This document shows positions 9,611 through 32,686 of a DNA stretch of 64,000 bases, piece by piece. Position 1 is the first letter of the stretch, and every line of letters starts with the position of its first letter. The position numbers and the translations under genes are program-made. This DNA is from Salinimicrobium sp. (GTDB lineage Archaea > Thermoplasmatota > Poseidoniia > Poseidoniales > Poseidoniaceae): NCBI GenBank assembly GCA_964228865.1, contig CAXRAI010000064.1, positions 5,863-69,862 of the forward strand, given 5' to 3'. The notes beneath the pieces are model-generated. The model ran no database searches. It was given only the letters and a program-made list of their open reading frames with translations, and was not told where the DNA came from.

Positions 9611-10306
9611 ATGGCCGCAGCCCTCCACGCCACCGGAGTGTGGAAGGTCTACCCGAGCGGTGAAGGGCGTGTTGACGCCGTCCGCGGTGTTGACCTTGAG
9701 GTGCACGCCGGAGAGATGGTCGCCATCACCGGCCCCTCCGGCTGCGGGAAGACCTCCTTGCTCAACGTGCTCAGTGGTCTCGATGCCCCATCAGCAGGAA
9801 CGGTGCTGATTCAAGGGGATTCCCTCTTCGACCTTGACGACGACCGTCGCACGAGGTTACGGGGGGAACGTCTCGGGTTCGTGTTCCAAGCCTTCAACCT
9901 CCTTCCTGTTTTGACGGCCACAGAGAACGTGGAGATTCCTCTCCTTCTTTCCGGCCAGGCGGCGAATGACGTGCGAAAGACGGCCCTCGAGGCCTTGGCC
10001 TCGGTTGGGCTTGCAGACCGTGCAGATCACCTCCCGGCCATGCTGAGTGGCGGTCAGCAACAACGCGTCGCTGTGGCACGGGCGGTCGTCCATCGCCCGT
10101 CCATCGTGTTGTGCGACGAACCCACGGGGAACCTCGACTCGGTGACGAGCAACGAGGTGTTGGACCTCATGTCCGCCCTGTGCAGGGAGGAAGGCATGAC
10201 CTTCCTGATCGTGACCCACGATGACGCGGTCGCTGCTCGGTGCGACCGCATCTTGCGCATGCGTGACGGCCTTTTCTTTGATGACGGTGCCTCGGAGGAG
10301 GCGTGA
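9611..10306 (+). CDS. ABC transporter ATP-binding protein (LolD/MacB type)
   Basis: Walker A GPSGCGKT, signature LSGGQQQRVAVARA, DEPTGNLD, VTHD; start at 9611 or 9572. Confidence 0.95.
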   Translation: MAAALHATGVWKVYPSGEGRVDAVRGVDLEVHAGEMVAITGPSGCGKTSLLNVLSGLDAPSAGTVLIQGDSLFDLDDDRRTRLRGERLGFVFQAFNLLPVLTATENVEIPLLLSGQAANDVRKTALEALASVGLADRADHLPAMLSGGQQQRVAVARAVVHRPSIVLCDEPTGNLDSVTSNEVLDLMSALCREEGMTFLIVTHDDAVAARCDRILRMRDGLFFDDGASEEA

Positions 10307-13300
10307 TGCTCGCCATTGCCGTTGGCTTGGCGGTGTTGGCCGGTTTGATCTTCGGTGTGTCGGCTCTGCTCGGTCTGCGGGAGCGCACCTTTGCGTCCAG
10401 CCTTTTCGTCATCCTTGGCCCAGCCATTGATGCCGGACTCACGGCATGGTTGCTGGCTTGGCTGGGGCTTGGCCCCGTGCTGACGGTCCTTTCAGGCGCG
10501 ATCGTCGGGTTGGCATCATCCTTGCTTCTTCCCGCGGTGTTGTGGCCTCGGCGCGCGCTCGTGGCCCGCTTGGCGGTGCGGAGCTTGTCTGCACGGCCAA
10601 AGCAGGCTGCTCTGCTTTTGGTGGCGCTCATCGTCTCTTCCTCCATCGTCTCTTCCTCCCTTGTGGTGGGCGACAGCTTGGACGCCACGGTTCAGCGTCA
10701 GGTGGATGCGGTGTGGACGGAAACCGACGTCGTCCTCTCGGGTCGAGACCCGGGCACGGCCCAGCCTATCCTTCTCGACGCCGCTTTTCTCGACGATGTG
10801 GCCGTTCAAGCAATGGCCTTGACCGACGAGGATGGTGGGGCGATTTTTGATGGCATACGAGCGACCCGTGCCCTTTCCGCGGCCGTTGAAGGCCCGACCG
10901 GTCGTGCACTTCCTTCCGTGGGTTGGTACGCACAGCGACCGATTGGTGAGCACCCTGACCCGTGGCCTGTCCTTGAGGTCAGCAGCGGTTTGGACTACGC
11001 CACCCTCGGTCTCCTCTCCAACGCGACAGGTCGTCACGAAGCAGCCATCACCGATGCGTTGGCACAGGAACTTGAGGTCCAGGTAGGGGGTCAGTTGAAC
11101 CTCACCTGGACCGCGGTTGAGGACGGCCGAGTCGTCCGTCATCGTGGCGTTGTACACGTTCATGCCGTGGTTCCCACTGAAGCGGGTGCGGCGATTGGAG
11201 GCCTTGGCCAACCGGCGCTGATGACCTCCATGGGGAGTTTCGAGGCCCTTGCAGGCGAAGGAGCCTCCTCGCTTCACCTGTCGGCGCGCGAGCCCTATGC
11301 GGACCGGGCGGGATGGGAGTCTGTGGAGGAGGGCCTTGCGGACGTCATCGATCTCGCTTGGACAGCGAAAATGGATGGCCTCGTTTTTGAGCCTGCATCA
11401 GGGGCGCTTGCCGTCGCCCGGGAAACGGGTTTGGGACGGTTGGAAGGGCCGCTTGTCGATGCCTTCCGAGCCAACCTCAGCACACTCGCAAGCGGGACCA
11501 GCATGTCGGAAATCGTTCAGGCTCCCGTTGAGGTCCTCGAACTGAACGGCCATCGCTCGCTTGTCCTCGCCGATGCCGACCTTGTCGATCTTCAGTGGTC
11601 AGGTGGTGCGTTGTGGCACGTGGGGGTGGCCGGTGCTGGCTTCCAAGTCGGCGGCTCGGGTTCCCCCGCCACGTGGTACGTTCCAGAGGGGGAGTTGCTC
11701 GACGCACACGCCGTCGTTGACGGCATCGGGTGGTTTGGTCATCCCACGGGCCTTCACACCCTGTGGGCAGACCGCCCAGCGGAGGACGCGCGTCGCGTCG
11801 GTGATGCTGCCGTTCACGCGCTTTTTGCGGACTCCGCCGGTGCACTGGTCATCGAAGGGAACCTCTCCAACCTCCATGTGGCCCACTACGCCATCATTGG
11901 TGAAGGTCATGAGGTGAAGCAGGCGTTCCGCCACCAGGTTGGCCTCGAGGTCCCAGACCCCCTCCTCAACATGGAGATGGAACGTGAAAACAACGGGACC
12001 CTTCTGCTGCATGCTGAGGGATTGTTCGGTTGGGAGGCTCATCGCCTGTTGGTCGATGCCAACGGTGTGCAGGTCTGGGACCTCGGGAGTCTCGGTCCAC
12101 CTTCTTCAGAGGGGCCTGTCCATCAAAACGCATCTGAGGGGCCTGGTTGCGACGGGCGAACAGGTGTGATCGACGGTTTCAACGACACGCTCGCGTGGTG
12201 CGCTGGCAACGATCGCTTGATCGGTTGGAGCACGGCGTCAGGCGATGTCGTTGAGTTGCGCCTTCCAAAAGCAGCCGAGATTGACGGGCTTGGCCGCGTC
12301 CCCGTGTTGTTTCTCGCCATCTCCGGGGCAGACGGCCTTGAGGTGGGCGTCGATGAGGTCGTGCTTAGCGGCGCTTTCGACGTGTTGGACCTGACCGATT
12401 CCGACGAGGTTTGGGTGGCTGGCGCTGTGCCATGGGCTTGGGGTGACAGTCAACGCAGCCGCCTGAACGTCAGCACCTCCGCCGCAAGCGCCAACCTCAC
12501 CGGTGTGGAAGAATTGGAACACCTCATCCTCGGCGTGGTGCACCCTGAGGCAGCCGTGGCCCTTGCAGGGGCTTCTGAGGGTGACCGCAGCATGCTCGTT
12601 CTCCAACCGAACGGCCTCGGGTACGACGCGCTCCTCGACGCCGTGGAGGCTTGGTTCGACGAGACGGCGACCCTTGAGAGCAGCGGCCTGAGGTTGACCC
12701 CTGTCCGCGTGGAATCTGCCGAGCAAGCCGAGGCTTCCTCTGGCGTTCTCTCTGGGATGTTTTTGGTCTTCGGTGGCTTTACCATCGCCGCAGGCGTCTT
12801 GTTGGCGGTCACCGTCGTGGTGTTGCTGGCCGAAGCACGACGCAAGGAATTGGCCACGCTTCGCGCCGTGGGGTTGACACGAGCAGATGCCCGCAGTGCT
12901 GCCCTCATGGAGGGGCTGTTGACGGCCTCCTTCGCCAGCCTTCTGGGCGGCTTCTTTGGCGTCTTCCTTGGACGTGTTGTTGCGCTCGGTTTCACGTCTG
13001 CGTTCAGCGCCGTTGGGGCCACCACGTTCACCTTCGCATGGTCATGGTCGTCGGTGATCGCCGGTGCGGTATGGGGTACGGTCATCGCGATGACGACCTT
13101 GTGGGCTTCAGCTCAATGGTCCAGTCGTTTGGACGTGCTCCATGCCCTGAGGGGGGTTCGAACCCGGGTGCAGGACGCCCTGCCGTGGCCTGTGTTCATG
13201 GCGGTGGCAGCCGCCCTCGGCCTTTCGGCGGTCTCTGCGGTGTCCCTTGTGTTTGGTGGGCTGGACGCACCGTTTGCCCGCCTGCGCTGGTTGTTGGTCG

Positions 13301-14895
13301 TGGACGGGCTGATCGTCGCTTCTGCACTCGTGGTGCTTTGGGTGGTCCCAGCGCTGAGACACACAGACGGTCCCGAGCGTCAAGCCCGGCTTCGACGTGC
13401 TCCCTCACGCGCCATCGGAGCATCAGCGCTCGGGCTCCTCATGTGGTCGTGGTGGCCAGAATCCCTTGACCCAATTCGGTCAGCCACCGCCTTTGACGAG
13501 GTCACCATGCTCGTCCTTGGGTTGGTGCAAGTGCTTGCGGGCGTGGTGGTGCTGGTCACGGTCATCCCTCGTGCCCTCCGTGCCTTGGCTGCTCGAGGGC
13601 GCCGACCGCGGCTTGTCGGCAGGTTGGCCCTCGCCCACCCTGTGGCTCAACCCCTCCGCACGGCGGTGGTGATGTCCATGTTTGCCGTGACGGTGTTCGC
13701 CGTCGTGGTTCTCGGGGGATACACGAGTTCCTTCGCAGCGGTGTCTGGTGACTTCGTTCAGGAATCCGAGGGGGATTTTGAGATCCTCCTGTCCGGCAGC
13801 CGGTCGGCGCCGGTTGAAATCGGTTCAAACCCTGTCGATTGGGGGCTTCCGGGAGAACAGGTTGAGCGCATCGACGCCGTCGCTGCGGTTTCACGGGCCG
13901 TGGTGGTGCTTGATGACGGCAGCAATGACCCTGTGCCCTACGTCCTTCGGGGAGCCGATGAGGCCTTTGCAGAGCATGGAGGATTGCCGCTGTACCTTTG
14001 GGACGAGTCCCTCGGCTCCACCGAATCAGAAGTGTGGGAGCGGGTGTTGAGCGACGACACATGGGTGATCGTCGATGCTTCGTTTGGCTTGGAAGCGACC
14101 ACCGACGGTGCGGCCGTGGGGGTCCTTCCGTTGAAACTTGGTCAAGATTTCGACTTGATCGCTCCGTCCGACCCTGGCACCGCGAAGTCGGTTCGGGTGG
14201 CTGGATTCTTGGCCCAGTCCTCGTTGGCCTTTTCTCCGGGCGTGTGGGCGAACCAAACCCTGGTTGAGGAACGCTACGACGGCGCCGTCACTCGCGTCTA
14301 TGTTTCGGTCGTCCCCTCGCCCACCGTCTTTGATGACGATCCCACGGACGTTGAGGTGCCCCCTGGCAAAGACGAGGACGAACGACGGGCCGCTGCGGGC
14401 GTTGCCAAGGCCTTGGACGAGGCGCTTGCGGACGACGGGGTGCTGGTCACGTTGATCGTCGATGACATCCTGCTCGTGCAAGGTTTGGTCTTGGCCATTC
14501 TGGCCATTTTCCAAGCCTACCTTGCCCTTGGGCTCGGCGTTGGCTTGTTGGGGATTGGTGTGGTCACCGCGCGTGCGGTTCGCGACCGGACCCACGTCAT
14601 AGGACTCTTGCGGGCCATCGGTGTCTCACGGCGACGTATTGGACAAAGCTTGGCCGGCGAAGTAGCTTGGACTGGAGGCCTCGGCCTCTTGGTGGGGGTT
14701 GCGGTGGGCATGATGTTCCACGTGCGCTTGCATGGCGCCATCTGGGCGGAACAAGGAGCGGAATTGGTGCTTCCTTGGGGCAGCGCAACCTCGGTGTTAT
14801 TCGGTGGAATGTTGCTGGTAAGCATCGCTGTGGCGTGGCCCATCCGAAACGCGACGAACATCGCTCCAGCCGAAGCCCTTCGCTCCCTCGAGTGA
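10303..14895 (+). CDS. FtsX/MacB/LolE-type ABC permease with two FtsX domains and a very large extracytoplasmic insert
   Basis: Overlaps the ATPase stop (GTGA); RRKELATLRAVG and RTHVIGLLRAIG FtsX motifs, each followed by TM bundles; ends IAPAEALRSLE. Confidence 0.9.
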   Translation: MMLAIAVGLAVLAGLIFGVSALLGLRERTFASSLFVILGPAIDAGLTAWLLAWLGLGPVLTVLSGAIVGLASSLLLPAVLWPRRALVARLAVRSLSARPKQAALLLVALIVSSSIVSSSLVVGDSLDATVQRQVDAVWTETDVVLSGRDPGTAQPILLDAAFLDDVAVQAMALTDEDGGAIFDGIRATRALSAAVEGPTGRALPSVGWYAQRPIGEHPDPWPVLEVSSGLDYATLGLLSNATGRHEAAITDALAQELEVQVGGQLNLTWTAVEDGRVVRHRGVVHVHAVVPTEAGAAIGGLGQPALMTSMGSFEALAGEGASSLHLSAREPYADRAGWESVEEGLADVIDLAWTAKMDGLVFEPASGALAVARETGLGRLEGPLVDAFRANLSTLASGTSMSEIVQAPVEVLELNGHRSLVLADADLVDLQWSGGALWHVGVAGAGFQVGGSGSPATWYVPEGELLDAHAVVDGIGWFGHPTGLHTLWADRPAEDARRVGDAAVHALFADSAGALVIEGNLSNLHVAHYAIIGEGHEVKQAFRHQVGLEVPDPLLNMEMERENNGTLLLHAEGLFGWEAHRLLVDANGVQVWDLGSLGPPSSEGPVHQNASEGPGCDGRTGVIDGFNDTLAWCAGNDRLIGWSTASGDVVELRLPKAAEIDGLGRVPVLFLAISGADGLEVGVDEVVLSGAFDVLDLTDSDEVWVAGAVPWAWGDSQRSRLNVSTSAASANLTGVEELEHLILGVVHPEAAVALAGASEGDRSMLVLQPNGLGYDALLDAVEAWFDETATLESSGLRLTPVRVESAEQAEASSGVLSGMFLVFGGFTIAAGVLLAVTVVVLLAEARRKELATLRAVGLTRADARSAALMEGLLTASFASLLGGFFGVFLGRVVALGFTSAFSAVGATTFTFAWSWSSVIAGAVWGTVIAMTTLWASAQWSSRLDVLHALRGVRTRVQDALPWPVFMAVAAALGLSAVSAVSLVFGGLDAPFARLRWLLVVDGLIVASALVVLWVVPALRHTDGPERQARLRRAPSRAIGASALGLLMWSWWPESLDPIRSATAFDEVTMLVLGLVQVLAGVVVLVTVIPRALRALAARGRRPRLVGRLALAHPVAQPLRTAVVMSMFAVTVFAVVVLGGYTSSFAAVSGDFVQESEGDFEILLSGSRSAPVEIGSNPVDWGLPGEQVERIDAVAAVSRAVVVLDDGSNDPVPYVLRGADEAFAEHGGLPLYLWDESLGSTESEVWERVLSDDTWVIVDASFGLEATTDGAAVGVLPLKLGQDFDLIAPSDPGTAKSVRVAGFLAQSSLAFSPGVWANQTLVEERYDGAVTRVYVSVVPSPTVFDDDPTDVEVPPGKDEDERRAAAGVAKALDEALADDGVLVTLIVDDILLVQGLVLAILAIFQAYLALGLGVGLLGIGVVTARAVRDRTHVIGLLRAIGVSRRRIGQSLAGEVAWTGGLGLLVGVAVGMMFHVRLHGAIWAEQGAELVLPWGSATSVLFGGMLLVSIAVAWPIRNATNIAPAEALRSLE

Positions 14896-14949
14896 TTTGA
14901 ATTTCGTACGCAGTCGCTTGATTTTGCGAAAATTTGCCCCGTCCCATAG

Positions 14950-14998
14950 TATAAATACGGCGCAAGGCGTGGAGGCCTTTAGCCACATTGTGGAGGGA
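14950..14998 (+). promoter_or_regulatory. TATA box (TATAAATA, 14950-14957) and SD motif (GGAGGGA, 14992-14998) of the 15004 gene
   Basis: Near-consensus archaeal TATA in an A/T-rich gap; SD lies 5 nt before the ATG; ATTTT-GCG-AAAAT dyad at 14921-14933. Confidence 0.65.
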
Positions 14999-15003
14999 CC
15001 CAA

Positions 15004-18000
15004 ATGCGAAACATGACCACCATGCTTCTCGTGACGCTGCTGCTTGCCAGCCTGCTCGCGGGAATTCCAACCAACGAACTTGACACCGAGGACACCATCG
15101 AACACACCAGCGCACGATCTGGTGCTGACATCGACATCCTCGGCATCACCCAACCGTCCGAAACGAGCTGTACCGCGGCAGGCTGCCGCGACGAATTGCT
15201 CGTCGGTGAGAGCACCACCTTTGAGGTGGTCATGAAGAACATCGGCACCGGAGACGTGGAGGACATGACCTATTCCTTGGACATCTACCTCACCGATTCC
15301 ACCAAGACCCGCGGCCTTTTGGCCAAGGATTCCACGGGCCAGGACCTCTCTTGGACCAACGAAGTGGCGGTTTGTGACGACGCTGCCTCCTGTGACGAGA
15401 CCTCGTTCGCGGCCAACACCCTCTACAAGGGCGGTGCTGCCACCCTCACCCAACTTGGTGCAGACATCACGTGGACCCCAGACGTTGGTGAGTACCTTGT
15501 TGTCGTGTCCGTTGACTCCGACCAGGACACCGATCCAGCCAACGACGAGGAAGAAATCTACGTCGTTGTCCGCGACTACACCGACATTGGTGTTGACCTC
15601 TGCTGGACCGACGGCGCCGGTGTGTGCGTCGAAGGCGACCGTGCTGTCGGAACCGGCACCGAGTCCCGGCAATTCCTCCTGACCGTGACCGCTGACGGCA
15701 GCCAAGAATTCAACCCCCGCGAGGTCAACGTGAGCGTTGAACTCGACGGTTTCGCTTCCGCCAGCGGCGGTGGCTTTGACCTCAGCGTTGATGGAGAGGA
15801 CTGGCTTGTTGTGGCCGGCAACCCACAAACGGTTGAGGTCTACCGCAACGTCACCACGGACACCGGCACCGATGCTTCGCGTGCTGTGCTGGCCTACCAG
15901 ACGGCGTGGACCATGAGCGGCCAAGTTACCCCTGACGACGGCGGCTACTCCATCGATGCTCGTGTCATTGACTACACCCTCTACGGTCAAGACCCGACCT
16001 GCACCGAGACTTGGGTCGAAGGTGGCGAAGACCCCGAAACTCAGACCGAATTCTCCAGCGACAACCAGTGTGAGTTCCAGGAGACCAACGACGACTATTC
16101 CCGCACCGACTCGGACGACATCTACGGATTCAGCGCCCTCTTCCACGACATTCGCATCCAGACGCTCTCCGTCGCTCAAGGCTACAGCGCAGACGGCTCT
16201 GGAGAGCCAACCTCTGTGGTGCAAGACGGCATGGATCTCGACCTGCGCGTGGGCCCCACCCTTCTCCACGCCAACGTGGGTCACTTCGGCTCTGACGTCA
16301 ACAAGATGGTGGACTGGAACGTTGTGTTTACCGTGACGGATCCCAACGGTGTCGAGACCACCTACAATGCGGACGACTGCCCCACTGGGCTTGCTCCCGC
16401 TTACACCCACAAGCTCCTCGGTACCTTTGGTGGTCAAGGCACGCCTCAAGACGCAGACGTGTTCGGTTCCGCTTGTGTGATGCTGAACAACGAAGCAGTG
16501 CTCGGCGTTGGCGAGTACACCTTCGAAGCCAACCTCAACTTCCTCGGCCTCTGGGACAACTCGGCTGACCGTCTTGACGAATCGGTCACGGACGAGAAGG
16601 CTTCGAACAACCGCAAGGTGATGACCCTCGATGTGGTGAACAACCAGCCCAGCGTGCTTTCGATGACGATGTTCAACACCGGTGACCTCATTGTCTCGCA
16701 AGAATCCCCGCTTGAGTTCGACGTCCTCGCCTTTGACGTGGATTGTGTGGCCGGGGACTGCCTGACCTACACCTGGGCCATCAACGACGAGACCCTCGGC
16801 ATGTGCGGTGGCGTGGGCGCGATCGGTGCACAGTGCACCTTCCAAATCCTGCCCGAGCACCTGCCCAGCCCCCGTGTGGCCGTGACCGTCACCGACGACA
16901 ACGGCGCATCCACCTCGGATTACATGGATCTGACCATCTGGAACGACGTGACGGCAGAATCCACTGCGGCTGACAGCGGCATCACCATCGCCTACACCGT
17001 GCAGTATGCGAGCACTTCGCCCTACACCATCACCGCGACCGACTCCGACATCAGCAGCCACGCCGGCATGGACCTGCCTGGATACACCGGTCAGTATGAC
17101 GCCGTTGCTGCGGTTGATTTCGCACCCGGTGTTCTTGGGTCCATCGATGCCAGCGGTGTGCTGAGCCACGGCATGACCTTCACCGTCCCCAAGTCCCTGT
17201 TGGGTTCGGCGAACGAAGGCAGCATGTGGTTCAACCAAGGCAGCATGTACCAACTTGTCGACGGCACACCTGCCGACAGCGACAGCGACCCGACCATGTC
17301 TGTGTTCACGTGGGACTTGCCCGCAACTGAGAACACCTTGACGGCGGGGACCTTCGTCCTCTTTGGCGGTTCCCTCGAAGAACCCGTGGCTCCGAACGCT
17401 GGAATCACCGGCTTCTCTGCGCTCGCCGGTGAAGGTGGCACGCTGGTCATGAACTGGGACGTCACCGACACCATGTCGCTCGGCGAGGTCTTCATCATGG
17501 AAATCTGTGACCACGCGAACGACGCCGACTGCATGAACGCGGTGGTGAAGACCTTCGCTGACAGCGTGAAGACCTACACCCACCCCGGAATCTCCACCGT
17601 TCACGGCACGGAGTACATCGTGACCGTTGAAGTGTGCAGCGATGACGGGTTGTGCAACACGCAGATCGGCACCGGAAACGTCACGGCCGACAAGGAAGTT
17701 GACGGCGACGGCGCCATGACCAACCTCATCGCTCAAGCCAGCGAGGACGGTACCATGTGGACCATGACCTGGACCACCACGGGCGACACGTCGGACATCG
17801 ACAGCTGGCGCATCTGCTACAGCACCAACAGCGACGTTGCTTCGATTCCAATCTCCGGCGAAAAGTGCACGGACGTTGCGGCCGCAACGGCCACGACGGT
17901 CGATGTGATGCAGCCGACCTTCACCGGCACCGAGACATACTATTTCGTGGGTGTCGCTGTGGACGACCTTGGCAACGACCGACGTGCTTCTGACGCGGCC

Positions 18001-18207: not shown

Positions 18208-18213
18208 TCCCTC

Positions 18214-18308
18214 CTGCTGATCACCAGCAGCACGAACCAGGCCGAAGGCCTGAGCCAGTGCGTTGGCATCCGGCGTGCGTCAGCACGCCGGGTGCCTTCT
18301 CTTGGCTC
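18214..18308 (+). terminator. Tandem GC-rich hairpins after the 15004 gene (terminator or 3' stabiliser)
   Basis: CTGCTG/CAGCAG, CAGGCC/GGCCTG and a 14-bp stem at 18265-18296 (one G-U pair) followed by TTCTCTT. Confidence 0.55.
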
Positions 18309-18803
18309 TCAATCGACATCCATGCCGTCAAAGGCAAGGATGCACCCCTCTACGCTTGACCACCGGTTTCATCCCTCACTGGATGGGTGGTGGGACGGTT
18401 CAAGCGTCTTTGCCAGTACCGATGTCCACAGGTCCCAGGAGGATATCCCTTGCAGCCACTTCGCCTGGATGACACGAGCACAAAGCTGTCTTTCACGCTC
18501 AACCTGTCATCACCACGAACGCGCACATCAAGCGATGGAGCGTAGGCGTGAGACGATCAGCGCTCCTCTGGTACTAACCAGTTTCACCGATGTAATATTT
18601 CCAAAGCTCTTTCTCGAGGAATTTCAGATTTCCTGCGGGTGCAGAACAGGACACGATGGCTCAATTCACCCATGCTTAGGCGGACTGGGACGGGTGCTGA
18701 TTCGACAAATGGAACGTACCAATCACGGGCAAACAAGTCCGCAGGCTAGCGGTTCTGTTGGGTAACCCAATTTGGGAGTTCAAAGCACATGTACCCCAAT
18801 GCC

Positions 18804-18854
18804 TATAACCGATACAGAACCTCCTATGCAATGCATACAGTCCGTATGGGGTGA
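18804..18854 (+). promoter_or_regulatory. Probable TATA box (TATAAC) and SD motif (GGGGTGA) of the giant gene
   Basis: TATAAC at 18804-18809; GGGGTGA at 18848-18854 is spaced better for ATG 18861 than for ATG 18855. Confidence 0.5.
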
Positions 18855-21800: not shown

Positions 21801-24800
21801 CGCACGCGTACGGTGACTGCGACCATCAGCGACGGCGGTTCCCCGCCTGCTGGACTGAACGTCAGCACCTCGGCCGGAACGGGCCCAACGCTCTACTACA
21901 GCGTCAACAACGGCACGACCACGTCCATCCGCATGTCTCCAGTCGGCAACACCGACGCACAGTGTGTGTTGGCAACCTGCGACTGGGCAGCTGACATCGC
22001 GAACCTGAACACCTCGGATTACGTTGAGTACTACATCACTGCTCAGGACGTCTCAACCGACGTGACCACGCCCAACTCCGTGCAGTCCTCGACGTCGAAC
22101 TTCGATGTTGGTGACCCCAACAAGATGTTCATCGTCGAGTGGCACGACATGGGCTACACCAGTGCTTACCTCTGCACCTATCAGGTGGTCTTCTACGACG
22201 TGACCAACGAGTTTGAGTTCAAGTACGACACCGGCTGTCAAGTCTACGTCGACTACTCCGCGACGGGCTACCAAGACCAGACGCGCTCGAAGGGTGAAAC
22301 CCTCCAGAAGGGTAACGGATGGTTGTACGGCTCCAACCCGTTCACCACCAACTACCGCATGCACACCTCCTCGACGAGCAACGGCCATGAGACGTTCTCC
22401 CCTGGTCTGACCGAGATCAAGAACTACGACACGGCCCTCAGCGGCAGCAGCAGCGGTACGCCCTACGGCTACTACTGTGCGTACAGCTGGTACTGGAACA
22501 CCTACAAGTCCAGCTGCAACGCTAACATCGACATGCCCGATGACTTTGACTTCGAGTACTTCGGCACCCTCTACGAGGGCACCGACTCGAACGACCGCAT
22601 CCGCCTTGGTCGCCAGGGCTACATGTACTTCATCGACAACGGTGCCACCAGCCTCGAGCGTGGTGTCTCCACGTGGAGCAGCAACTTCCCGAACATGCCC
22701 TACTCGGGCAACTCGGCCTCGCGCCCCGGCACCATTGCGCCGTGGTGGGGTTACTACACCTCCTACTACTGCTACGACAACACTGCGATTGACTGCAGCG
22801 TCCGCTACCGCACCATGCCGTACAACGGCAAGGGTACGGACATCGACGCCGACATCACCACGGACACCACGTGGGACATCGACGACAGCCCAATCCGCAT
22901 CAACCCGAGCAACGACTACCTGTCCATCTCTGCCGACCTCACCATCGAGCCCGGCGTCGTGGTCCAGGTGGCCAGCGGCAAGGGAATCTCCTTCGACGGC
23001 TCGTGCGACGAGATGAAGATCAACGGCAACGCCGCGAACCCCGTCCTCTTCGAGGGTCAAGCGGGTGGCGATTGGAAGGGCATGGCGTTCACCGCCGCTT
23101 GTGCTTCCGGCACCGACGACCGACACGAGTTCTCTCACGTCGACTTCCGCAACACCAGCGATGCGGCCATCGCTGCGGGTAGCCGCCACGGCAGCTCCCC
23201 CAGCACAAACGCCAACGTGGGCAACTTCACCATGAACGACGTGACTTTCACGAACGTCGCTGCGGCCTTCCAGCACGGCTCTGGCCAAGGCACGGTCGTC
23301 GAAATGACGAACTTCGCCGTTGATGGCGCGGACAACGCGTGTTTCAACTTCGCTGAGGACACCGTCGCCATTCTGCGCGAGGGTTCCATGAAGAACTGCA
23401 ACACCAATGGACAGAGCTGGGGCGGTGCGATCGTCAACTACCCAGGTTCCAACGCCGGCAGCCTCTTTGTTGAGAACGTCACCGTCACGAACTCCTACGT
23501 GAACTTCATCGACGTTGATTTGCAAGACGTGACCGTCTCCAACGTGAGCGTCAGCAACTCCGCCGCTCAGACCGGTGTGGCCATCGATGCCATGCACGGC
23601 ACCAACGCCGACGTGCACCTCTACAACGTCAGCGTGACCGACTACGCCAACAGCGGTTTCAACGCCGTGTCCAGCATTTACATGGACGACGTGGACTTCG
23701 GCAGCGCCGACCTTTGGATCACCCCCAACGGATGGGGTTCCTCCGCCGTCGGCCCAGTGGGTGACAATGCGGTCATGAAGAACGTCGATTCCGGTGACAT
23801 CACGATGCAGCGCATCCACTTCGGTGTCTTTGAGGACATCACGGCGGGCGATGTGTCGATCTCCGGCACCACGACGCACACCGAGACCGAGGTTTGGAAG
23901 AACCTCGACATCGGTGACCTGACCATCAACGGTGGTGCATGGAGCCTTATCCTCGAGAACGCGGACGTCAGCCGTCTGTACAGCTTCTCGACCTCGGCCA
24001 CGAACACCATCGTGATGGAGCAAGGCTCGAGCATCGACCACGACGATTCCTCTGTGGACGCCGTCTACGGTCGCAACTCCGACATCACCCTGGCGTCGGT
24101 CGCCATCACCTCCAGCAACATCGACGGCAGCAGCAACTACGTCGCCAAGGCCTCGTCGAACAGCGACATCGTCCTGATCGACGTCTCCTACGACGACGGA
24201 ACCGGCTCTTCCGACTGTGCGGACTCCAGCGGCGACACCTCCAACTGTCCGGTTGACGTTTCGTCCTCCGCGACCGTCTGGTACGGTGGCCTTGCTCAGG
24301 TCTCCCTTTACCGTGAGGCCCTGATCAACAACGTCGTGACCAAGGTCTACAAGTCCGGCCACAGCGTCCGGACCACGGTGATGGACACCTCGTCCAGCCC
24401 TGCGGCTGCCCTCTTCGAGATTGGAACCGCAGAGACCGACTCCTTGGGCATGGCCGAGGCATGGGTCGTCTCCGGTGACTCCAACGGCAACACCTACTCC
24501 GACCACCAGATCTTCGGATGGGGTGCTGCCGGTCAGAACGAGACCCTCCTCTCGTCGGCTTGGTACCCAAGCGGCGGCTTTGGTTTCGGTGACCAGATTG
24601 AGTTGCTCCTGCAACCCGCTCCGATCAACTTTGACCAGCCCAACATGGACTGCACCTGGATGTCCAACAACCAGACCTTCCAAGGCGCGGAATCCAGCCC
24701 AGGCGTCTACGTCTTCGACAGCTTCCCAATGACGCTGTCGGCTGACCTCGACATCAACGGCTGTACCCTCGTCATGATGGGTTCCGTGATGACCGTTGAC

Positions 24801-27800
24801 GCCTCGGCGACCAACAGTCCGGTTCTGACCATCAGCAACGGTGGTACGCTCCTCGTGAACGTCTCCTCCGACACGGGTGGCAAGGGCACCATCAAGGCAC
24901 AGAGTGCGTCCTATGGTGTGCGTCTGGATGTCGCGGACGGAACGCTTTCCGTCGCCGGTGGCATTCTGAAGGATCTCCACCAAGACTCCTCGACGATGTC
25001 TGCACTTTACATTGGAAGCGACGGTGCCTTGGTGCTCTCCGAATCCGCTGAAGTTTACGGCGCACAAGCGTCCAACGACGACATGGCGACGGTCAAGATC
25101 GACCGTGGAAGCGTCAGCATCAGCGACTCCAGCATCATCAACACCGCTGGCACGGGTACCGCCCTGTGGATCGAAGGATCCGCCGCCTCCGTGGACAACA
25201 TTGTGGTGAAGAACGGTGCTGTGGGCATCATGTCGAAGAACGCGGCGCCTCAGATTGACGGCTTCACGTCCACCGACAACACCGTCGGTGTCGACATGGA
25301 GGGTGGCATGAGCCTCCCGACCATCTACCGCTCGCCCTCGCTTGCTGGCGTGAGCCGTGGATGGCAGACCTACGACATCGACCTCTCGGCGTTCATCGGC
25401 AACAGCGACTACCTCCAGGTGGGCGCCAACTCGATCTACGCCGGTGGTAACGCTCACCCGTACTACAACTACTGGACGAGCAAGTACTACTTCATCACCG
25501 ACCGCTACCGCATGGAGTTGACCGACAACAACGGCAACACCTGGAACATCAGCGCTGGTGACACGGGTTACTACCCATACAGCTCGAGCGACCCCAACGA
25601 GGGCGTCGGCGATGTCGGCACCTACCAAGGTGGCAAGGGCGGTGTGCCCCAGTGGGACTGCAACTACTACGGTGTGGACTATGGCCCCAACCGTGTTGGG
25701 ACCAGCGGTTACTACGGATACGGCCAGACTGGCGTGTACTGGTACTTCACCGGTAACTCCGGAACCTACCCCAACTACTACACCAAGCCCGCTCAGTTCG
25801 GCTTCTCTTGGGAGAGCATCGACGGCGTGACCCCGACCGGATCCTACGCCTACTACCCATACCACTACTGGGGCTACGGCACCTACAGCTGGGCCGGTTG
25901 GAGCGGCGTCATGGTTCCCCCCGAGGGCTTTGTGAGCTCCTACAACTACAACGTCTGTTTGGACTATGCTTACTCGTACTACATGAACAGCGGTCAGGGC
26001 GCTCGCGTGACCTTCCCAATCGTGGACATCTCCGCCAGCAACCTGACCTCGGCTACGATGTACATCGATGTCCTGCACAACCGTGCAAACAACTACCAGG
26101 ACCGGTACGAGTTCGTGGCCCGCTCTGGAAACGATCCATCGGACCTCGGCGACTACAAGCGTGAGTCCGGTACGCCCTTGTTCAAGGACGGCACCATCAA
26201 CGGCGCTGACGTCGGTGTGGAAATCGGTGGCGACTTCGCCGCTGGTCACCTCGACACCGTCGAGATCAACAGCCCGAACGACGCCGGTATCATGGTTGAC
26301 GGTTCCACGATGGCGAGCGCCGACGGCGTCACCGTCAACGGTGGCGACTACGGTGTCCTCATCGCCAACGGCGCTGCTGGCAGCATGGACCTCGATAACA
26401 TGGATCTGGATTCCCAGACCGTGGCCGGTATGTACTACGTCAAGGACTTCGGCGGTGACTTCACCGGTACCGTGTCCAACAGCGCAGGTGCAGCCATGAA
26501 GTTCGGACCAAGCACCACGAAGGACCTTGCCTACGACACCGTTGACTTCAGCGGCAACAACGTTGGCTTCGACCTTGCAGGTAGCGGTGGATTCACCTTC
26601 GTCGACTCGACGATGGGCAGCACCTCCAACGACTTCAAGATCAGCGGTTCGTCCGTGGTCGAGTTCATCGAAGGAACCGTGGACAGCACAAGTGTTGACG
26701 TCACCGGATCTGGTGAGTTCAACCGCATGCGACAAATCGACGTGACCATGACGGCCGATCAGAGCGACGGCAACGGCGCTGTTGGTGTGTCCGATGTCGC
26801 CGTCGTGCTTCGTAACTCGGAAGGGGCTACGGCCTCGTCCGGAACCACGGACACGTCCGGTATTGCGCAGGACCTGACCTTCACGACGATTGTCGTGGAC
26901 GTTGGTGGCCTCCACACGCAGGACTTGAACGGTTACACCGTGTCCTCTGTGGCCATGGTGGACTACTACTGGACCTCCTCGAGCGACAACAACGCGGACT
27001 TCCGATACGTCGAAGAAGGCATCAGCGTCAGCGACACGAGCGGCAACACCGCCACGGTCGAGCTCATTGACGAGTTTGACCACCGTGTGTGTTACTACTT
27101 CACCTCTGCCAGCTACAACTACGTGAACCGCTGTGCGAACGGTTGGTCCTCCACCGGCTCAAGCCGTGTGTTTAGCAACGGCCTTGAGGAGCACGGCTAC
27201 TACTACGGCTCCGTGGACGGTACCGACTTCACGGGCGACGCGGTCATGGTCGACGCGCCCAACTGGTACCTCGGTGGCGACACCTACGAGTGGAACAGCA
27301 CGACCCTGATTTGGACCGGCTCTTGGGCCACCACTGACCTGTCGCGCATGATTCCGCGCTACAACCAGGAAGTCAACATGTACGTGCACGACTCGACCAT
27401 CATGAGCATGTCCGTGAACGACGACGGCGACCTTGCCGGAATCGACTTCGGTTACATGTACTACTCGATGAACGTGGACGCCAACAACACCGACTTCAAC
27501 GGCATCGCTTCCATCATCGGCGCGATCGGTTACGGCTACTACAACGAGTACGAGCTGGACTTCTTCAACGTGCGAAACTCGACGATCACCCACTACAAGG
27601 GCTGGTCGCCGTTGAACAACGCGATTCAGGTCCAGGACATGTGCATGCGCATCAACGGCGGTGAAGGCAACATCATCGAGAACAACACGTTCATCGATTG
27701 TGCTGTGGGCATCGAAATGACGCGCTCTCCGTACTATTGGAGCCACAGTTCCTACGAGATCGGTGCGGACAACATCACCATCCAGTACAACACGTTCGAA

Positions 27801-30800
27801 GACGGTGGCGAAACCTCCGACATCCGCTTCTACCCGAACGCGAACGCTGAAGGTGCAATGGTTGTCGGCAACACCATCAACAACACGCTTGGTGGAAACT
27901 CCGCCATCTCGGCATGGGACAGCACCATCGAAGACCTGACGATCAAGGACAACACCATCCGCGGCTTCACCGAGGACGGCATCTACCTGAACGACATCAA
28001 GGGCTTCGAAGTGAGCGGTAACGAGATGTATGGACCCGGTGAAGACTCCGCTGCGATTTACGCCAACGGTGGCTACGGTGACATCATGGACAACGTGATT
28101 GTCGACTCCGACATTGGTATCCTCATGTCCGAGGCTTCCCAGCCCGTCGGCACCACGACCAACCTGTGCCAAATCGACGGCAACTACGGCTACGGCGACA
28201 GCTGCACCTTCAACTTCGCTGGCAACGGTACCACCCTTGTCATCGACATTGAGACCGACAGCTGGGGCTACGAGATCTCCCTTGAGATCACCAAGCCTGA
28301 CGGCACCAAGGACACCTGGAGCACCTACACCTTCAGTTCCAACACGGCCTACAAGCCTCTGACGACGTACACGGCTGCCGGAACCTACAGCATCTCTGTC
28401 TCCGACAGCTGGGGCGACGGTGGAATCACCTTGGACGCCTACTACACGTCGGCGCAGAGCGGTGTCTCCGGCCCCGTCATCAGCGGCAACGACATCTCGA
28501 TGTCGCCCGGCTCCTCATTGATGGCCACGACCGGTATCCTCGTTGAGGACTGCACGGGTACGGGCATCAACATGGCCGACAACTTCGTCGCCATGCCCAC
28601 CGACGCCGTCCTGACCGACGGCTGTGACGTCTACGATGAGAACTCCGAACTCCTCGGTGGCGACCAAGCCTCGACGTCCGGATTCGTGAGCACCAGCGGT
28701 GACACGGTGACCCTCAGCGGCACCACGATCTCGGGCTACGAGACCGGTGTGGAATCCGACGGTGGTGTCCTCAGCATCATCGACAACGCCACCATCGGCG
28801 GTGAGAGCGAAGGTGTTTGGGCCTACGACACGCAGTTGTTGATCAACTACGCCGAACTCGACGGTGGAGCCTCCGGTGTGGGTCTCCTCCTCGAGGACAG
28901 CGGTGAGGCCCTCATGTACTGCGTCGACCTTGAAGGTGCGGCGGGCATGGAGATCTACAACACGGACTTCCGCTACAACATGGGCGACGTGAACGCTGAG
29001 AGCGCCATCTTTGTCTCGGACTCGGTCGGTAAGATCGAGAACTTGACGTGGACCTCTGCGGTCACGACGCAAATCGAGTTGGACCAGGGCGCGATGGTGA
29101 CCTCCATCGGCCAGGACTTGACCCCGTCCCTGCTCATCGTGCCCACGGGTACGATGATCGACGAGGCCAACCTCCTCGACATCGCCGCCCAGCACTTGAG
29201 CGCACCCGTCACCTCTGAGGTCGGCGTCTCCATCGTGAGCACCGACGGCCTCCGAGCGGCCTACATCTCGCCGGACTTCCAGTCCGACGCGATGGCCGTT
29301 GACGGCGACAACGCGGACTGGGTCGGCTCCGAGCTGAACCCATCCGATGATGCGATGCCCGGCGAGTTGACCGAGAACTTCTACGTGACCTACACGGAGA
29401 ACGACGACCTGTACGTGGCCATTGACGGCCTCGACCTGTCCACCTCGGACCTGTTGGTGTACTTCGACGTCACCGGTGGCGGTTCTGACGAAGGCTACGA
29501 CTACGGTGCCTCCGGCGCCCACGACTTGCCCTTCGAGGCCGACTTCGTCTACTGGGCTGAGTCTGACGCGAGCAACGACCTGTACGCCTACGGCTTCCTC
29601 GGCTGGGGCGTGACGTCGCTGTCCGCCGACAACGTTGACGCTGACTTCTCTGGCGACTTCGCCGAGATCATGGTGCCCTTCAGCCGCCTTGGCGGCATGC
29701 CGAGCTCCGTGCGCATGATTGCCATCGTGCAGAGCGACAGCAGTGCTGACGTCAGCGAGGTCTATCCCGACCAAGCCATGGACACGACGACCACCCTCCA
29801 GGACTTCAGCGAGTACTACACTGTGGTGCTCGGTGCGAACAACCTGCAGGACGGCGTGCTCGAGGACGAGGTGCTCACCTACCGCACCTTCCTTGGCAGC
29901 AACGTGCCATCGGCCGCGAAGGAGTACGACGTGATGATCAAGCACACCAACGACGACTGTGCCGTTGACTGGGCGACCGAAGATGCGGTCAACATGTCCG
30001 ACAACGTTGCCCTCACGATGGACATCCAGCGTGCGTGCCCAACGATCGGCAGTTCCCTCGCGAACATCACGGTGAGCGAAGACTCCGCGGCGTACACCGT
30101 CTCGTTGACCTCCTACGCCTCTGACGTGCAGGACGCCGCCGGCGACCTCACGTGGGCTGTTGACGAAGGCGAGACTGTGGTGGTCTACGGCAACACGCCG
30201 ATGCCCGCCGAGGGTCTGGTCAGCTGGACCCTTTCGGGTCACGACCTCAGCATCACCCCGACCGCCGATCAGTTCGGTACGGTGCAGTTCAACTTCACCG
30301 TGACCGACAGCAACGGCCTGACGGACGAGCGTTCCATCCACTTCATCGTGGAGAACGTCAACGATGCTCCCGAGATTTGCCAGCGCGACACCAACGGCGA
30401 CTGTGTGGACACCGTGATGCTCTTCGGAGACGCGGCGCACGTGAACTACATCCCTGAGGACAGCCTCGTGGGTGGCCAGAGCGTGTCTGTGATCCTCTCG
30501 GACCGTGCCAACACCGGTGCAAGCGCACTGAACCTCATCAAGGACCAGGCGAACGAAAACGATCCGTCCCGCCAAATCTACACGTGGGGCGTGTCCGTTG
30601 ACGAGGCTTGCCCGCTGTTCACGGTGGGCATGGTGGACGACACCTTCCTGACGGTGACCGGCAAGTCCGGCATGGCCTTCGAGGCCGGCGGTTCGTGCGA
30701 CATCACGCTGACCCTCGCCGACGACGGTGCTGAGAACCAGAACGCCGTTGACGAGATCATCACCATCAGTGTGGTGCCCGTGAACGACGCTCCGACCATC

Positions 30801-32579
30801 GACGACTGGAACCTCCAGACCGGCGACACGATCAACTGGGCCTCGAACGATTCCTCGCTCATCTACGGCGAGTGGACCATCCGTGTGCTTGAGGACACCG
30901 AAGACGCCAGCGAACTGACCTTTGACCTGTCCGCGCTCAAGAACGACGTCGACCACGACCTCGGCGACCTCACCTGGTCGCTGCTGCCGAAGCTCGACGA
31001 CACCGGCCGCGCGTACTGCGCCTACACGAACTACTTCTCGTTCACCTTCAACGGTGACGAGCTCGTGTTGGACCTCGTCAAGGACGCCACCACCAACGCT
31101 CCGATCAACCAGATCGACTACCTCTACAACGGCGGTGTGCACCAGGTCAACCCGGCCGGCAAGGGCTTCTGTGAGATGGAACTCTACCTCACGGACAGCG
31201 CTGCTGCTCCGACTGGCTTTGCCTACGACCTCAACGACAACGGCTACATCCAGCAGACCTCGCTGAAGCGCGACGTGAAGATCATCGTGCAGAACGTGGC
31301 TGAGCAGGTGCCCGACTACTACTTCGACGCCACCACTGGCTTCGACTTCAACGGCGTGTCCAACGTCATGGACGGCACCTGGGTGCCTGTGACCGTGACC
31401 GTGACCGCTGGCGGTGACGAAGGACCCTACAACCACGACAGCATGCTGATGATCACCTTCCAGAGTGACGGCCACACCGAGACGGAGCGCGACGCCATCT
31501 ACATCGACGCGCCCGCCTACGGCCAGACCGTGACGGTGGACTCCGAAGTCTTCGTGAAGGCGGTCACCACGACCGTTTGGGTTGAGATGGACGTCAAGAC
31601 CTGTGTGGACGAGAGCTGCGACATGACGAAGTCGATCGACGACCGCTTCATCGCTGACGAGCCAGCCAGCCACGGCAAGGTGACCCTCCCCAACAGCCTC
31701 GACTACTGGGCCGAGCCCGGTTTCTATGGCTCTGAGGACGGTACGGACAGCATCCGACGACCGGTGCTCGAAGACAAGGACTGGTGTAACAACGTGATGT
31801 ACAACACCCTCACGGGCAACATCGACGTGTGCGACCAAGCGGACTACGGCCGAGGATCCTTCGAGATCACCGACCAGGACCTGCCTGACGTCGTGCGCAC
31901 CATCGGTGCCTCTGGTGTTCCGTCGTTCGCTCCGAGCATCGTCGCCGTTGCCCTCGCGGGCATCGTCGTCGGCCTCCTCGCTCTGGCGGGTCGCCGCGAA
32001 GAAGACGAAGAGGAGGAGGAAGAGTCCTCCCCACGCTTCGTCGACGACGAAACGGCCGTGAGCCCGGTCATTGCGACCATCCTCATGGTGGCGATCACCG
32101 TCGTGCTTTCCGGTGTCATCTACGTCTGGGCGTCCAGCCTGGCCGAGACCGACGTCAAGGGTGTGCCTCGCATCACCTTCGACATCGAGGACATCGACGC
32201 GTACAACGCTGAGACCGGACACTGGAAGATCGAAGTGCAGCAGTCTGAGACCGAACTGGCCACCCAGGCCGTCGAGATCAAGATTTTCGCGGCCGAGATT
32301 GACGGTGTTTACGAGGTCAAGATGGCCGACTCCGACGGCGTCTACGGCTTCTCACCCTTCAACAGCGACAGTCTGGTGACCTTCTCCGACTCTGTTCGGT
32401 CCGAAGGCGACGACAAGGTTTCGACCTTCTTCGTCGGTGACACGATCTTCGTGCGCACCCACCTGGCGGACGGCACGCCCTTGACGGACGTGACCATCCA
32501 GCTGTCCTACGCACCTGAGGTTGGTCAGGGCGCACTGCTCCGTACCTGGAGCGGTCTGTCCTACGACCTCGCTGCGTGA
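18855..32579 (+). CDS. Giant (4,574 aa) surface adhesin-like protein fused at its C-terminus to an archaeal type IV pilin
   Basis: KKK plus hydrophobic signal peptide; WapA/Rhs-like N-terminal module; nidogen-like, beta-helix, DOMON/CBM9-like and cadherin-like (VNDAP) segments; VPSF-TM-RR anchor; internal class III signal and pilin H-domain at 32058. Start may be 18861. Confidence 0.9.
   Translation: [4574 protein letters not shown]
32058..32579 (+). other. Embedded type IV pilin domain (predicted mature 173 aa) within the giant CDS
   Basis: [28 protein letters not shown] closely matches the conserved archaeal pilin H-domain (haloarchaeal PilA: [22 protein letters not shown]). Confidence 0.88.
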
Positions 32580-32601
32580 GCAGAACGGGACGAAGCAACC
32601 G

Positions 32602-32686
32602 GCCATGGGGCCCCTTGGGGCGTCATGGCGTGGCCTGTGGCCACAGCCCCCCCAGCGTGGGGGGAGCGCTTCGGCGCTCCCCCCGC
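32602..32686 (+). terminator. Tandem hairpins after the giant gene, including an 11-bp stem with a cUUCGg tetraloop
   Basis: GGGGGGAGCGC-TTCG-GCGCTCCCCCC at 32659-32684; GCCATG...CATGGC at 32602-32629. Confidence 0.65.

Follow-up and report, generated by a model that had tools for sequence, protein, structure and literature searches.

A conserved four-gene locus of Poseidoniales that joins a double-FtsX ABC pair to an anchored surface protein and a giant protein with a type IV pilin tail

Introduction

Why should a giant surface protein of a marine archaeon end in what looks like a complete type IV prepilin, and why should its gene stand behind those of an ATP-binding cassette (ABC) system? 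Both questions are raised by a stretch of 64,000 nucleotides (the window; contig CAXRAI010000064.1, C64:5863-69862) from assembly GCA_964228865.1 (1.85 Mb in 84 contigs, 85% complete), which belongs to the Poseidoniales. This order (Marine Group II) is among the most abundant archaeal groups of the surface ocean and has never been cultured. Reading the open reading frames (ORFs) of the window showed that positions 9611-32579 are filled by four genes, all on the plus strand. They encode an ABC ATPase (9611..10306), a double-FtsX permease of 1,530 amino acids (aa; 10303..14895), a type-I membrane protein of 1,067 aa with a signal peptide and a C-terminal transmembrane (TM) helix (15004..18207) and a protein of 4,574 aa, here called the giant, composed of ectodomain, TM helix, linker and pilin module (18855..32579). 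The 23-kb block, referred to below as the cassette, has a PIN-domain gene on its upstream side and a HAD hydrolase gene downstream. An earlier note, made from the letters of the window, had described the four co-oriented genes as a candidate surface-appendage locus; all four are real and lie where it had placed them.

The giant protein ends in a type IV pilin module

The greater part of the giant is a Sec-exported ectodomain (aa 1-4354; 18855..31916, plus strand), most of which matches no family. A NosD-type right-handed beta-helix was recognised near aa 2929-3096 and a Big_9/cadherin-like domain at aa 3737-3828. The ectodomain is followed by a V-P-S-F-A-P-S motif, a stop-transfer TM helix and the pair RR (aa 4355-4381; 31917..31997, plus strand), and S28, F29 and P31 of the PSFAP motif are invariant in an alignment of 30 sequences. 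A 20-aa acidic cytoplasmic linker comes next (EEDEEEEEESSPRFVDDETA; 31998..32057, plus strand) and has the place of a prepilin leader: class III cleavage is predicted after Ala4401 (codon GCC, 32055-32057), that is between residues 4401 and 4402 of the 4,574. What remains is a type IV pilin module (32058..32579, plus strand; 173 aa if cleaved) in which a helix, VSPVIATILMVAITVVLSGVIYVWASSLA, precedes a beta-sandwich of ten strands.

The tail scores above the cut-offs of both Pilin_N (PF07790; 35.0 bits against 25.2) and TIGR02537 (30.3-36.4 bits against 20), and its sole sequence match in the PDB is 8fj5, a Pilin_N protein with 20 chains in that one entry. An AlphaFold2 (AF2) run on aa 4330-4574 with the 30-sequence alignment gave a TM helix, a disordered loop, a second helix (75-101) and a ten-stranded beta-sandwich, at a pLDDT of about 80. 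The best Foldseek matches of this model were archaellins of Oxyplasma, Methanococcus and Halobacterium and a Cuniculiplasma filament (22% identity), with E-values of 4.6e-5 to 3e-4, probabilities of 1.0 and modest TM-scores of 0.28-0.43. Close homologues of the giant carry the name 'type IV pilin [Poseidonia sp.]' at NCBI. It might be thought that the tail is an archaellin, but the archaellum operon of this genome has ordinary archaellins of its own, with a AAIGIGAMIVFIALILVAAVAA helix, and this possibility was rejected.

The junction of the giant reads DDETA-VSPVIATILMVAITVVLSGVIYVWASSLAE and is followed by a domain of about 140 aa. Directly after the predicted class III site stands the hydrophobic helix, A↓VSPVIATILMVAITVVLSGVIYVW (the arrow marks the predicted cut), and the same arrangement is found in the stand-alone pilins of the genome. 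Pilin 1 starts M-NNENRNDEA-VSPVIATILMVAITVVLAGVLYVWASSLAE, pilin 2 starts ...HDEGDA-VSPVIATIL... and pilin 3 starts MRRRVRDDEA-VSPVIATVLL.... Because site and helix are shared with these pilins, the junction of the giant corresponds to the genome's own prepilin site and polymerisation helix. Its topology is also that of a prepilin. The Sec signal places the ectodomain outside, so the chain crosses the membrane inwards in the first TM helix, forms its loop in the cytoplasm and crosses outwards again in the pilin helix. Class III peptidases cut their substrates in this orientation.

The sequence A-V-S-P-V-I-A-T-I-L is invariant in 30 of 30 tails, against a mean column identity of 52%. Among 121 representatives position -1 is Ala without exception, positions -3 to -5 are D, E or N, and position -7 is Met in 64 and L, I or F in the others; the loop comprises 16-22 aa, 49% of them acidic. 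The frequent Met at -7 may be what is left of a start codon, from a time when the pilin had its own gene. The giant described here has Phe at this position. Where the Met has been lost the pilin could not be translated alone from that position, which suggests that the fusion itself has been kept by selection, and the absence of any stop or frameshift in about 100 genomes points the same way.

We surveyed 151 genomes of the order, representing 22 genera and three families. The fusion is present in 99 of them, and in each of the three families it ends, wherever the contig allows, an uninterrupted frame of 4,400-5,500 aa. A search of the protein database gave 253 matching clusters; of the 120 listed, nearly all have a length of about 4,500-4,900 aa. 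So long a frame invites the suspicion that assembly or a frameshift has artificially joined two genes. We regard the chance of this as negligible, since in-frame fusions free of internal stops recur in independent assemblies of about 100 species and in the 253 clusters, and since the recurring cases include the MG-II chromosome record CM001443.1, which also carries the neighbouring 1,067-aa gene. A '1 TGA' reported inside the pilin match of one genus is not a case of recoding; the alignment runs a few residues beyond the natural stop.

The same tail was also found on proteins of a second kind, from metagenome contigs, by an exhaustive phmmer search with the junction of the giant. This second protein family (P0185, P0197, P0209, P0218, P0223, P0239, P0243, P0274 and P0297; 311-2,650 aa, some of the shorter members looking like fragments) has ectodomains that differ from that of the giant, namely Gly-rich, Kelch and BNR. 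Its members end in xPSFAP[SG], a TM helix, a basic loop (e.g. KKRKKGYRRDRE), A↓VSPVIAIILMVAITIVLAG and the beta-domain. The tail is thus a portable module whose class III leader looks canonical, a finding in favour of cleavage. The family was not found in 33 sampled Thermoplasmatota genomes.

The beta-domain of the pilin module also occurs without the pilin helix, in the Sec-type surface proteins P0171, P0174 and P0180 (520-710 aa). Two of these end in GLPSIG, a TM helix and RREHEE or RREQEE.

The stretch VPSFAP-TM-RR deserves comment, as it recalls PGF-CTERM and VPXXXP-CTERM, the tripartite C-terminal sorting signals of exosortase/archaeosortase systems. It fits the pattern of motif, TM helix and basic residues and is literally V-P-x-x-x-P. 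In the giant, however, the tripartite pattern is internal, being followed by linker and pilin, and the sister family reads VASFAP. The CTERM models gave no match to the giant at E <= 10. No exosortase gene (PF09721) was found in the genome's own family by a search that also missed the Haloferax controls, so that its absence is weak evidence. Processing by an archaeosortase thus found no support, though the test was weak.

A candidate class III signal peptidase

A standard prepilin peptidase could not be assigned: PF01478 gave nothing above its cut-off in the 151 genomes, with 12 of 14 control genomes detected. Weak matches led instead to a divergent candidate, a polytopic ORF of 330 aa (C83:14960-15946) with the motifs LDHLDRRVPN and HGGADAK, which in our reading resemble the two-aspartate motifs of A24 peptidases. 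Over its C-terminal half the ORF matches Arc_PepC_II from end to end at 23.6 bits (E = 7.8e-5; cut-off 29.9). ORFs of this type occur in 110 of the 151 genomes, in 17 of the 22 genera and in 44 of the 58 genomes of high quality, the same numbers as for the T2SSF platform gene, as would be expected of a class III peptidase. We regard the ORF as a candidate for this enzyme. The genome carries type IV pilus (T4P) ATPase and platform genes as well.

Does T4P machinery adjoin the cassette? Several genera have a T2SSF gene of 601 aa at 14-24 kb on its upstream side. In the single locus that was read (G014, C1:153117-165116, L072) this gene proved to be the FlaJ gene of the archaellum operon, which lies about 14 kb before the cassette with housekeeping genes in between, and in the genome described here the operon lies on another contig; the idea was dropped. 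The latter operon (C45:27858-41524) encodes two archaellins, FlaF/G-like proteins, FlaH, FlaI and FlaJ, and a gene for a 1,677-aa signal-peptide protein stands upstream of it.

Proposed processing of the giant precursor

How could one chain be both a surface protein and a prepilin? The explanation we favour, with modest confidence, is that the giant is a polyprotein which a class III peptidase would cut into an anchored adhesin and one pilin. It would be exported by Sec and halt in the membrane at PSFAP-TM-RR. About 20 acidic residues would then loop through the cytoplasm, and the chain would re-enter the membrane as a full prepilin. The candidate peptidase would cut after the invariant Ala, before VSPVIAT, so that each precursor would yield one membrane-anchored giant adhesin and one mature pilin. 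Because its helix is nearly identical to those of the stand-alone pilins, the freed pilin would be expected to co-assemble with them, and in this way the amount or position of the adhesin might be coupled to the pilus.

Several points weigh against this explanation. Known class III signals are N-terminal, and the 'leader' here would consist of 4,401 residues including a TM helix. The linker is acidic while canonical leaders are basic (PMC13705601), although the stand-alone pilins of the genome are acidic at -2 to -4 as well. Position -2 of the predicted site is not conserved. Given the null result with PF01478, the peptidase call depends on the motifs, on the phyletic pattern and on a C-terminal match that stays below the cut-off. 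The putative adhesive function is read from size, the beta-helix and Ig-like content. If there were no cleavage, the TM helix, loop and pilin helix would form a permanent hairpin in the membrane, and the beta-domain might dock the giant at or under the pilus machinery, or cap or terminate a filament, with no free pilin ever formed. The acidic leader and variable position -2 would suit such a hairpin, and an internal class III site is mentioned neither in PMC4858521 and PMC13705601 nor in the other papers found; the two separate TM helices and disordered loop of the AF2 model suit either reading. A simple hairpin would, however, tolerate change, and it is exactly at the site that invariance is highest, with A↓VSPVIATIL at 100%. 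Moreover, site and helix are those of the stand-alone pilins, which must be cleaved, and the linker of the second protein family is a textbook basic class III leader. Known type IV filaments have the N-terminus of this helix packed inside the core, where an uncleaved subunit could not polymerise. We therefore consider the permanent hairpin rather unlikely.

Conservation and loss of the four-gene block

The order PIN-ABC-FtsX-1067-giant-HAD was the same in all ten loci that could be reconstructed from flank to flank, and these represent three families. About 45 more genomes carry the permease and the pilin end on a single contig, in the same orientation and at a distance of 16.7-19.6 kb. The permease was detected in 98 of the 151 genomes and in 15 of the 22 genera, which are the same genera that have the fusion. 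No genome had the permease without the giant or the reverse beyond what contig breaks explain, and the exceptions within a genus are of the same nature. An ABC pair unlinked from the surface genes in most relatives, which by the earlier note would have told against its proposal, was not what we found; linkage is the rule. All eight genera sampled from the genome's own family have the cassette. It also occurs in the second family of the order and, within the third, in six of 13 sampled genera.

Seven genomes without the cassette, which belong to six genera, have the HAD gene about 0.6 kb after the PIN gene. The insertion or deletion therefore comprises exactly these four genes, and no permease was found in the cassette-less genomes. 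In a tree of HAD and PIN they form one clade with a support of 100/100, so that a single change or loss event explains the absence. For this reason repeated independent co-loss, which we had considered as evidence of coupling, was rejected. The genomes of this clade are streamlined (1.2-1.6 Mb) and lack Pilin_N pilins and nearly all T2SSF genes. Most also lack the peptidase candidate, which two genera keep together with one T2SSF match.

These data support the four genes as a discrete, order-wide unit of the Poseidoniales. Outside the segment from PIN to HAD most adjacencies of the window are gone between the genome's own family and the third. In four genomes of the third family PIN is the only one of the upstream genes within 12 kb upstream of the cassette, and on the other side HAD-PolD-CinA persists in two of the four and nothing beyond. 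There is, however, a point against regarding the unit as functional. The PIN-ABC and giant-HAD junctions are as conserved as the internal ones, and PIN and HAD are adjacent even where there is no cassette. The flanking genes are equally stable neighbours, and the loss amounts to one event; the segment seems to be stable for reasons unrelated to function.

The connection of the locus with a surface appendage, as the earlier note had proposed it, is nevertheless borne out by the genuine type IV pilin module of the giant and by the absence of all four genes from the clade that has no Pilin_N pilins and hardly any T4P platform genes. The pair of surface genes forms a pilus-linked module found throughout the lineage and looks like an attachment device.

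The ABC pair

The ATPase gene starts at ATG 9611 (the longest ORF begins at GTG 9572), and its product matches PF00005 with 119 bits. Its motifs are intact: Walker A is GPSGCGKTS, the signature LSGGQQQR, Walker B LCDEPTGNLD and the H-loop THD. The best NCBIfam models are LolD, YbbA and MacB (226-234 bits), with FtsE also among them, and all remain below their equivalog cut-offs. Scores such as 234 against 308 for LolD, 226 against 966 for MacB and 17 against 362 for lolCE are so far below these cut-offs that the ABC pair is not an orthologue of any named system. The start of the permease gene overlaps the stop of the ATPase gene as TGATG, with GGAGGAGG just upstream of the permease start. ATPase and permease are thus a translationally coupled type VII ABC unit of the MacB/LolD/FtsE kind, with ordinary codon use. 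No gene for a membrane-fusion protein (MFP) or for a partner, e.g. of the EnvC/PcsB type, was found in the cassette.

The permease matches PF02687 (FtsX) with 75.9 bits over two stretches, in other words it has two FtsX modules in one chain. By hydropathy its N-terminal part consists of three TM helices, a TM helix at 104-122, ectodomain 1 (aa 123-824, about 700 aa) and FtsX domain 1. The C-terminal part has three or four further TM helices, a TM helix at 1121-1139, ectodomain 2 (aa 1140-1383, about 245 aa) and FtsX domain 2, and each FtsX domain ends in three TM helices after its ectodomain. MacB_PCD (PF12704) was detected at aa 105-345 in two orthologues of about 31% identity (34.8 and 37.3 bits) and not, even at E <= 1, in the permease of the window. 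The permease has PDB sequence matches to YtrF and MacB, both weak. A homologue search with the ectodomain alone returned close relatives only; ectodomain 1 evolves as fast as the surface proteins, with 30-38% identity within the family.

These features agree with type VII ABC systems such as MacB, LolCDE, FtsEX and YtrEF, which likewise have an ATPase of the LolD/MacB/FtsE kind and FtsX modules of four TM helices with a large loop between the first and the second; MacB_PCD is seen in the two orthologues mentioned above. The duplicated single-chain layout recalls the permeases YbbP (YbbAP) and ADOP. The present pair differs in coming from an archaeon, which has no outer membrane, and in having no gene for a membrane-fusion protein beside it in the cassette. 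Its permease is further set apart by the ectodomain of about 700 aa and by the three extra N-terminal and three or four central TM helices.

Full-length relatives of the second half of the permease (970-1,280 aa, 24-30% identity) occur in many other families of the Thermoplasmatota; none was present in seven listed genomes of the sister order, which are relatives at class level. Among eight outgroup loci, seven have an ORF of about 230-275 aa, the size of an ATPase, in front of the permease relative. The genes that follow are heterogeneous and encode a metallo-beta-lactamase-like protein, transporter-like membrane proteins and an oxidoreductase, and none of the eight loci showed a pilin motif or a surface-gene partner. 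The ABC pair belongs to an older two-gene module that is spread over the Thermoplasmatota without surface-gene neighbours. The Poseidoniales permease is 250-550 aa longer than these relatives and has a lineage-specific extension of about 480 aa.

For the second protein family two distinct contexts in three places were read (loci L163 and L164), and neither contained a double-FtsX ABC. One has a small pair of MacB type at a distance of 8 kb, on the opposite strand and beyond five unrelated genes; in the other, L164, two tandem fusion genes follow a GH35 gene. An ABC of this kind is thus not needed for the architecture of anchor and pilin tail.

Does the ABC pair then act on the surface proteins? 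That it does so in some way we consider doubtful. It may be a neighbour and nothing else, a general type VII exporter or mechanotransducer (of a lipid, a peptide or a toxic compound, for example) in a segment poor in rearrangements, and this we find quite plausible, if a little short of probable. The flanking junctions that are as stable as the internal ones, the adjacency of PIN and HAD without the cassette and the single deletion in one clade all agree with it. So do the relatives of the permease that have an upstream ATPase and no pilin or giant nearby, the ordinary codon use and separate promoter-like box of the ABC genes, and the second protein family without such an ABC beside it. No shared domains were detected between the permease and the two surface proteins. 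On the other hand, permease and giant are never apart in the 151 genomes save for contig breaks, these adjacencies were kept while most others in the window were lost between families, and the permease has been enlarged in the Poseidoniales, with an ectodomain 1 that evolves as fast as the surface proteins.

The same observations bear on the mechanism put forward in the earlier note, in which the ABC system would extract the anchors by mechanotransmission or position the proteins; it might also release or activate the giant, and the four genes would build one attachment organelle. LolCDE, FtsEX and MacB all do work outside the membrane. That the four genes are inherited together across the order and were lost as a single block would be in keeping with such a role, and so would the translational coupling, the intact ATPase and the MacB_PCD of the orthologues' ectodomain 1 together with the extension of about 480 aa. 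Every point in favour of a mere neighbour nevertheless counts against it, as does the second protein family, in which the fusion architecture exists without an ABC of this kind, and no type VII ABC system is known to extract a proteinaceous TM helix. We judge the mechanism unlikely. What stands of the proposal is a conserved unit tied to the pilus; the extraction or positioning of subunits by the ABC system is not supported. A bolder version would see in the locus a self-contained attachment organelle of undescribed kind. The giant would be cut at PSFAP on the outer face of the membrane and at the class III site on the inner face, and the double-FtsX machine would hand the freed adhesin, perhaps with the DWDY-tailed stalk described below, to a pilus nucleated by the co-translated pilin. 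This seems to us improbable; were it true, a type VII ABC mechanotransducer would work together with a type IV pilus. An ABC motor should not enter models of the structure until co-expression or physical contact has been shown.

The 1,067-aa protein

The first of the two surface genes encodes an acidic protein with a Sec signal, 20 Cys and one TM helix at 1034-1054. AF2 modelled it as a string of about ten beta-sandwich (Ig/Fn3-like) domains at a pLDDT of 77, and a PDB profile search gave Fn3-like matches at 780-980. The cytoplasmic tail has the form RG-Gly(n)-K[DE][WF]DY, its final D-Y being invariant in 14 orthologues from two families. The protein might therefore serve as a stalk of beta-sandwich domains on one TM helix, with a conserved ...DWDY tail in the cytoplasm. 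Foldseek returned generic multi-Ig proteins only (complement, alpha-2-macroglobulin), with an S-layer protein at rank 18. We rejected the idea that this is the general S-layer protein of the order, as its fold is a generic string of beta-sandwiches and as no homologue was found anywhere in 12 cassette-less genomes. The 80 listed relatives of the gene in named genomes all come from metagenome-assembled genomes of Poseidoniales/Poseidoniaceae, save a record titled Salipiger bermudensis; the MG-II chromosome record CM001443.1 is among the listed relatives.

The anchors of the two surface proteins had been described as similar. They do resemble each other in this genome, LPSW plus TM helix in the 1,067-aa protein corresponding to VPSF plus TM helix in the giant, but 12 identities in 28 positions (E = 1) are not significant. 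In relatives the motif of the 1,067-aa protein drifts (IPTQAW, I-GNAI, FPRLAI) while V[PA]SFAP of the giant is fixed. The resemblance is thus not a shared conserved signal.

In another genome of the same genus (G042) a contig starts with a different gene, of about 1,030 aa and with a signal peptide, directly upstream of the giant (L014, G042:C32:101-3203), and the 1,067-aa orthologue ends another contig. An extra surface gene may have been inserted between the two there.

Elsewhere in the window positions 50922-60164 encode a surface protein of 3,080 aa with four CBM96 stretches. Its cytoplasmic tail consists of a poly-acidic run, four GPSGPAP repeats and an end rich in Trp, Tyr and Asp (...WYEDEAGTWWYRAQGEDDWQEWTD). 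The next gene (60116-62824, 902 aa) ends in a W-rich motif similar to that of the 3,080-aa protein. Together with the ...KDWDY of the 1,067-aa protein these tails hint at a cytoplasmic docking tag that surface proteins might share.

Expression signals

The two surface genes were said to have their own promoter and ribosome-binding elements, a strong preference for codons ending in C and strong 3' hairpins, and in all three respects the description proved accurate. The promoter-like elements can be read directly from the sequence. A TATA-like box, TTGATAAA (9583..9590, plus strand), lies 21 nt before the ATG of the ABC ATPase gene, whose transcript is probably leaderless. Upstream of the 1,067-aa gene there is a promoter-like TATAAATA (14950..14957, plus strand) and a Shine-Dalgarno-like GGAGGG (14992..14997, plus strand) before ATG 15004. 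The giant gene likewise has a Shine-Dalgarno-like element before it and is preceded by a promoter-like CCTATAAC (18802..18809, plus strand), which forms part of a conserved promoter and leader block (18780..18854, plus strand): the roughly 75 nt before the ATG are almost invariant in the genus, while the remainder of the 650-nt spacer has diverged.

At third codon positions C has a frequency of 0.54 in the 1,067-aa gene and of 0.59 in the giant. For 16 other genes of the window the values are 0.36-0.47, and these include the ABC ATPase (0.42) and the permease (0.37). GC-rich hairpins follow both surface genes. Those after the 1,067-aa gene (18208..18300, plus strand; longest stem about 14 bp) have a predicted folding energy of -55 kcal/mol and those after the giant (32580..32700, plus strand; 13-bp stem GGGGGGAGCGCTTCGGCGCTCCCCCC) one of -75 kcal/mol, compared with -8 kcal/mol at the HAD/PolD junction. 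An Rfam scan of 8500-33500 gave no match. Because of the separate promoter-like elements, the codon bias and the hairpins the locus looks like three transcription units, with a machine of predicted low expression and two structural genes of predicted high expression.

Relation to known systems

The closest known counterparts of the tail are the archaeal Pilin_N/DUF1628 adhesion pilins, to which PilA1-6 of Haloferax volcanii belong. With these (PDB 8fj5) the giant shares the Pilin_N match, the site [DE]-x-A↓VSPVI(A/G), a conserved hydrophobic helix common to several pilins of one genome and a beta-sandwich head, and here too the genome has T4P ATPase and platform genes and a candidate class III peptidase. 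The prepilin of the giant is not N-terminal, however, but comes after 4,401 residues, a TM anchor and an acidic loop, and the peptidase candidate is too divergent for PF01478.

In the bindosome of the Sulfolobales, binding proteins with class III signals are encoded beside ABC importers and assembled by type IV filament (T4F) systems (PMC13705601). The giant is likewise a 'functionalised' pilin-like protein, but the ABC system beside it is of the FtsX/MacB type and not a binding-protein-dependent importer, and no substrate-binding-protein family was found in the four cassette proteins. Furthermore, the giant has its pilin module at the C-terminus, with a small beta-domain only, and its large functional part on the far side of the predicted cut. 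Large accessory proteins, though no pilin fusion, have been described for archaeal T4P loci, among them the DUF2341/PilY-like proteins of Methanococci and an S-layer-like, TM-anchored large protein of Thermoproteales loci (Makarova et al., PMC4858521). They resemble the giant in being large, equipped with a signal peptide or a C-terminal anchor, associated with pili and proposed as adhesins. They are, however, encoded by genes of their own inside T4P loci. The giant is joined covalently to a pilin, and its gene is not located with those for the ATPase and the platform; DUF2341 was not detected in the cassette proteins.

Attachment of Poseidoniales to particles and algae has so far been discussed only in terms of the 'archaeal flagella operon', present in all MGIIa and half of the MGIIb genera with a proposed adhesion role, and of thrombospondin and flotillin genes (Rinke et al., PMC6461757). 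A 2026 survey of archaeal T4F systems screens by N-terminal signal peptides and does not mention Poseidoniales (PMC13705601), and our literature searches found no paper on the fusion or the cassette. If the giant is cleaved, it would have an internal class III signal peptide with a 'leader' of about 4,400 residues, a layout mentioned in neither PMC4858521 nor PMC13705601. As the cassette is present in two families of the order and in six of 13 genera sampled from the third, and missing from the streamlined clade, it is a candidate for a trait that separates attached from free-living lifestyles.

Neighbouring genes

Upstream of the cassette the window contains an ORF of 1,306 aa (3641-7561) with no Pfam match, TM-like segments at both its N- and C-terminal ends and an acidic tail, for which tblastn found no match in ten reconstructed loci of other genera. 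The gene between it and the ABC ATPase (7730-8953) encodes the 407-aa PIN_6-domain protein that is the invariant upstream neighbour of the cassette.

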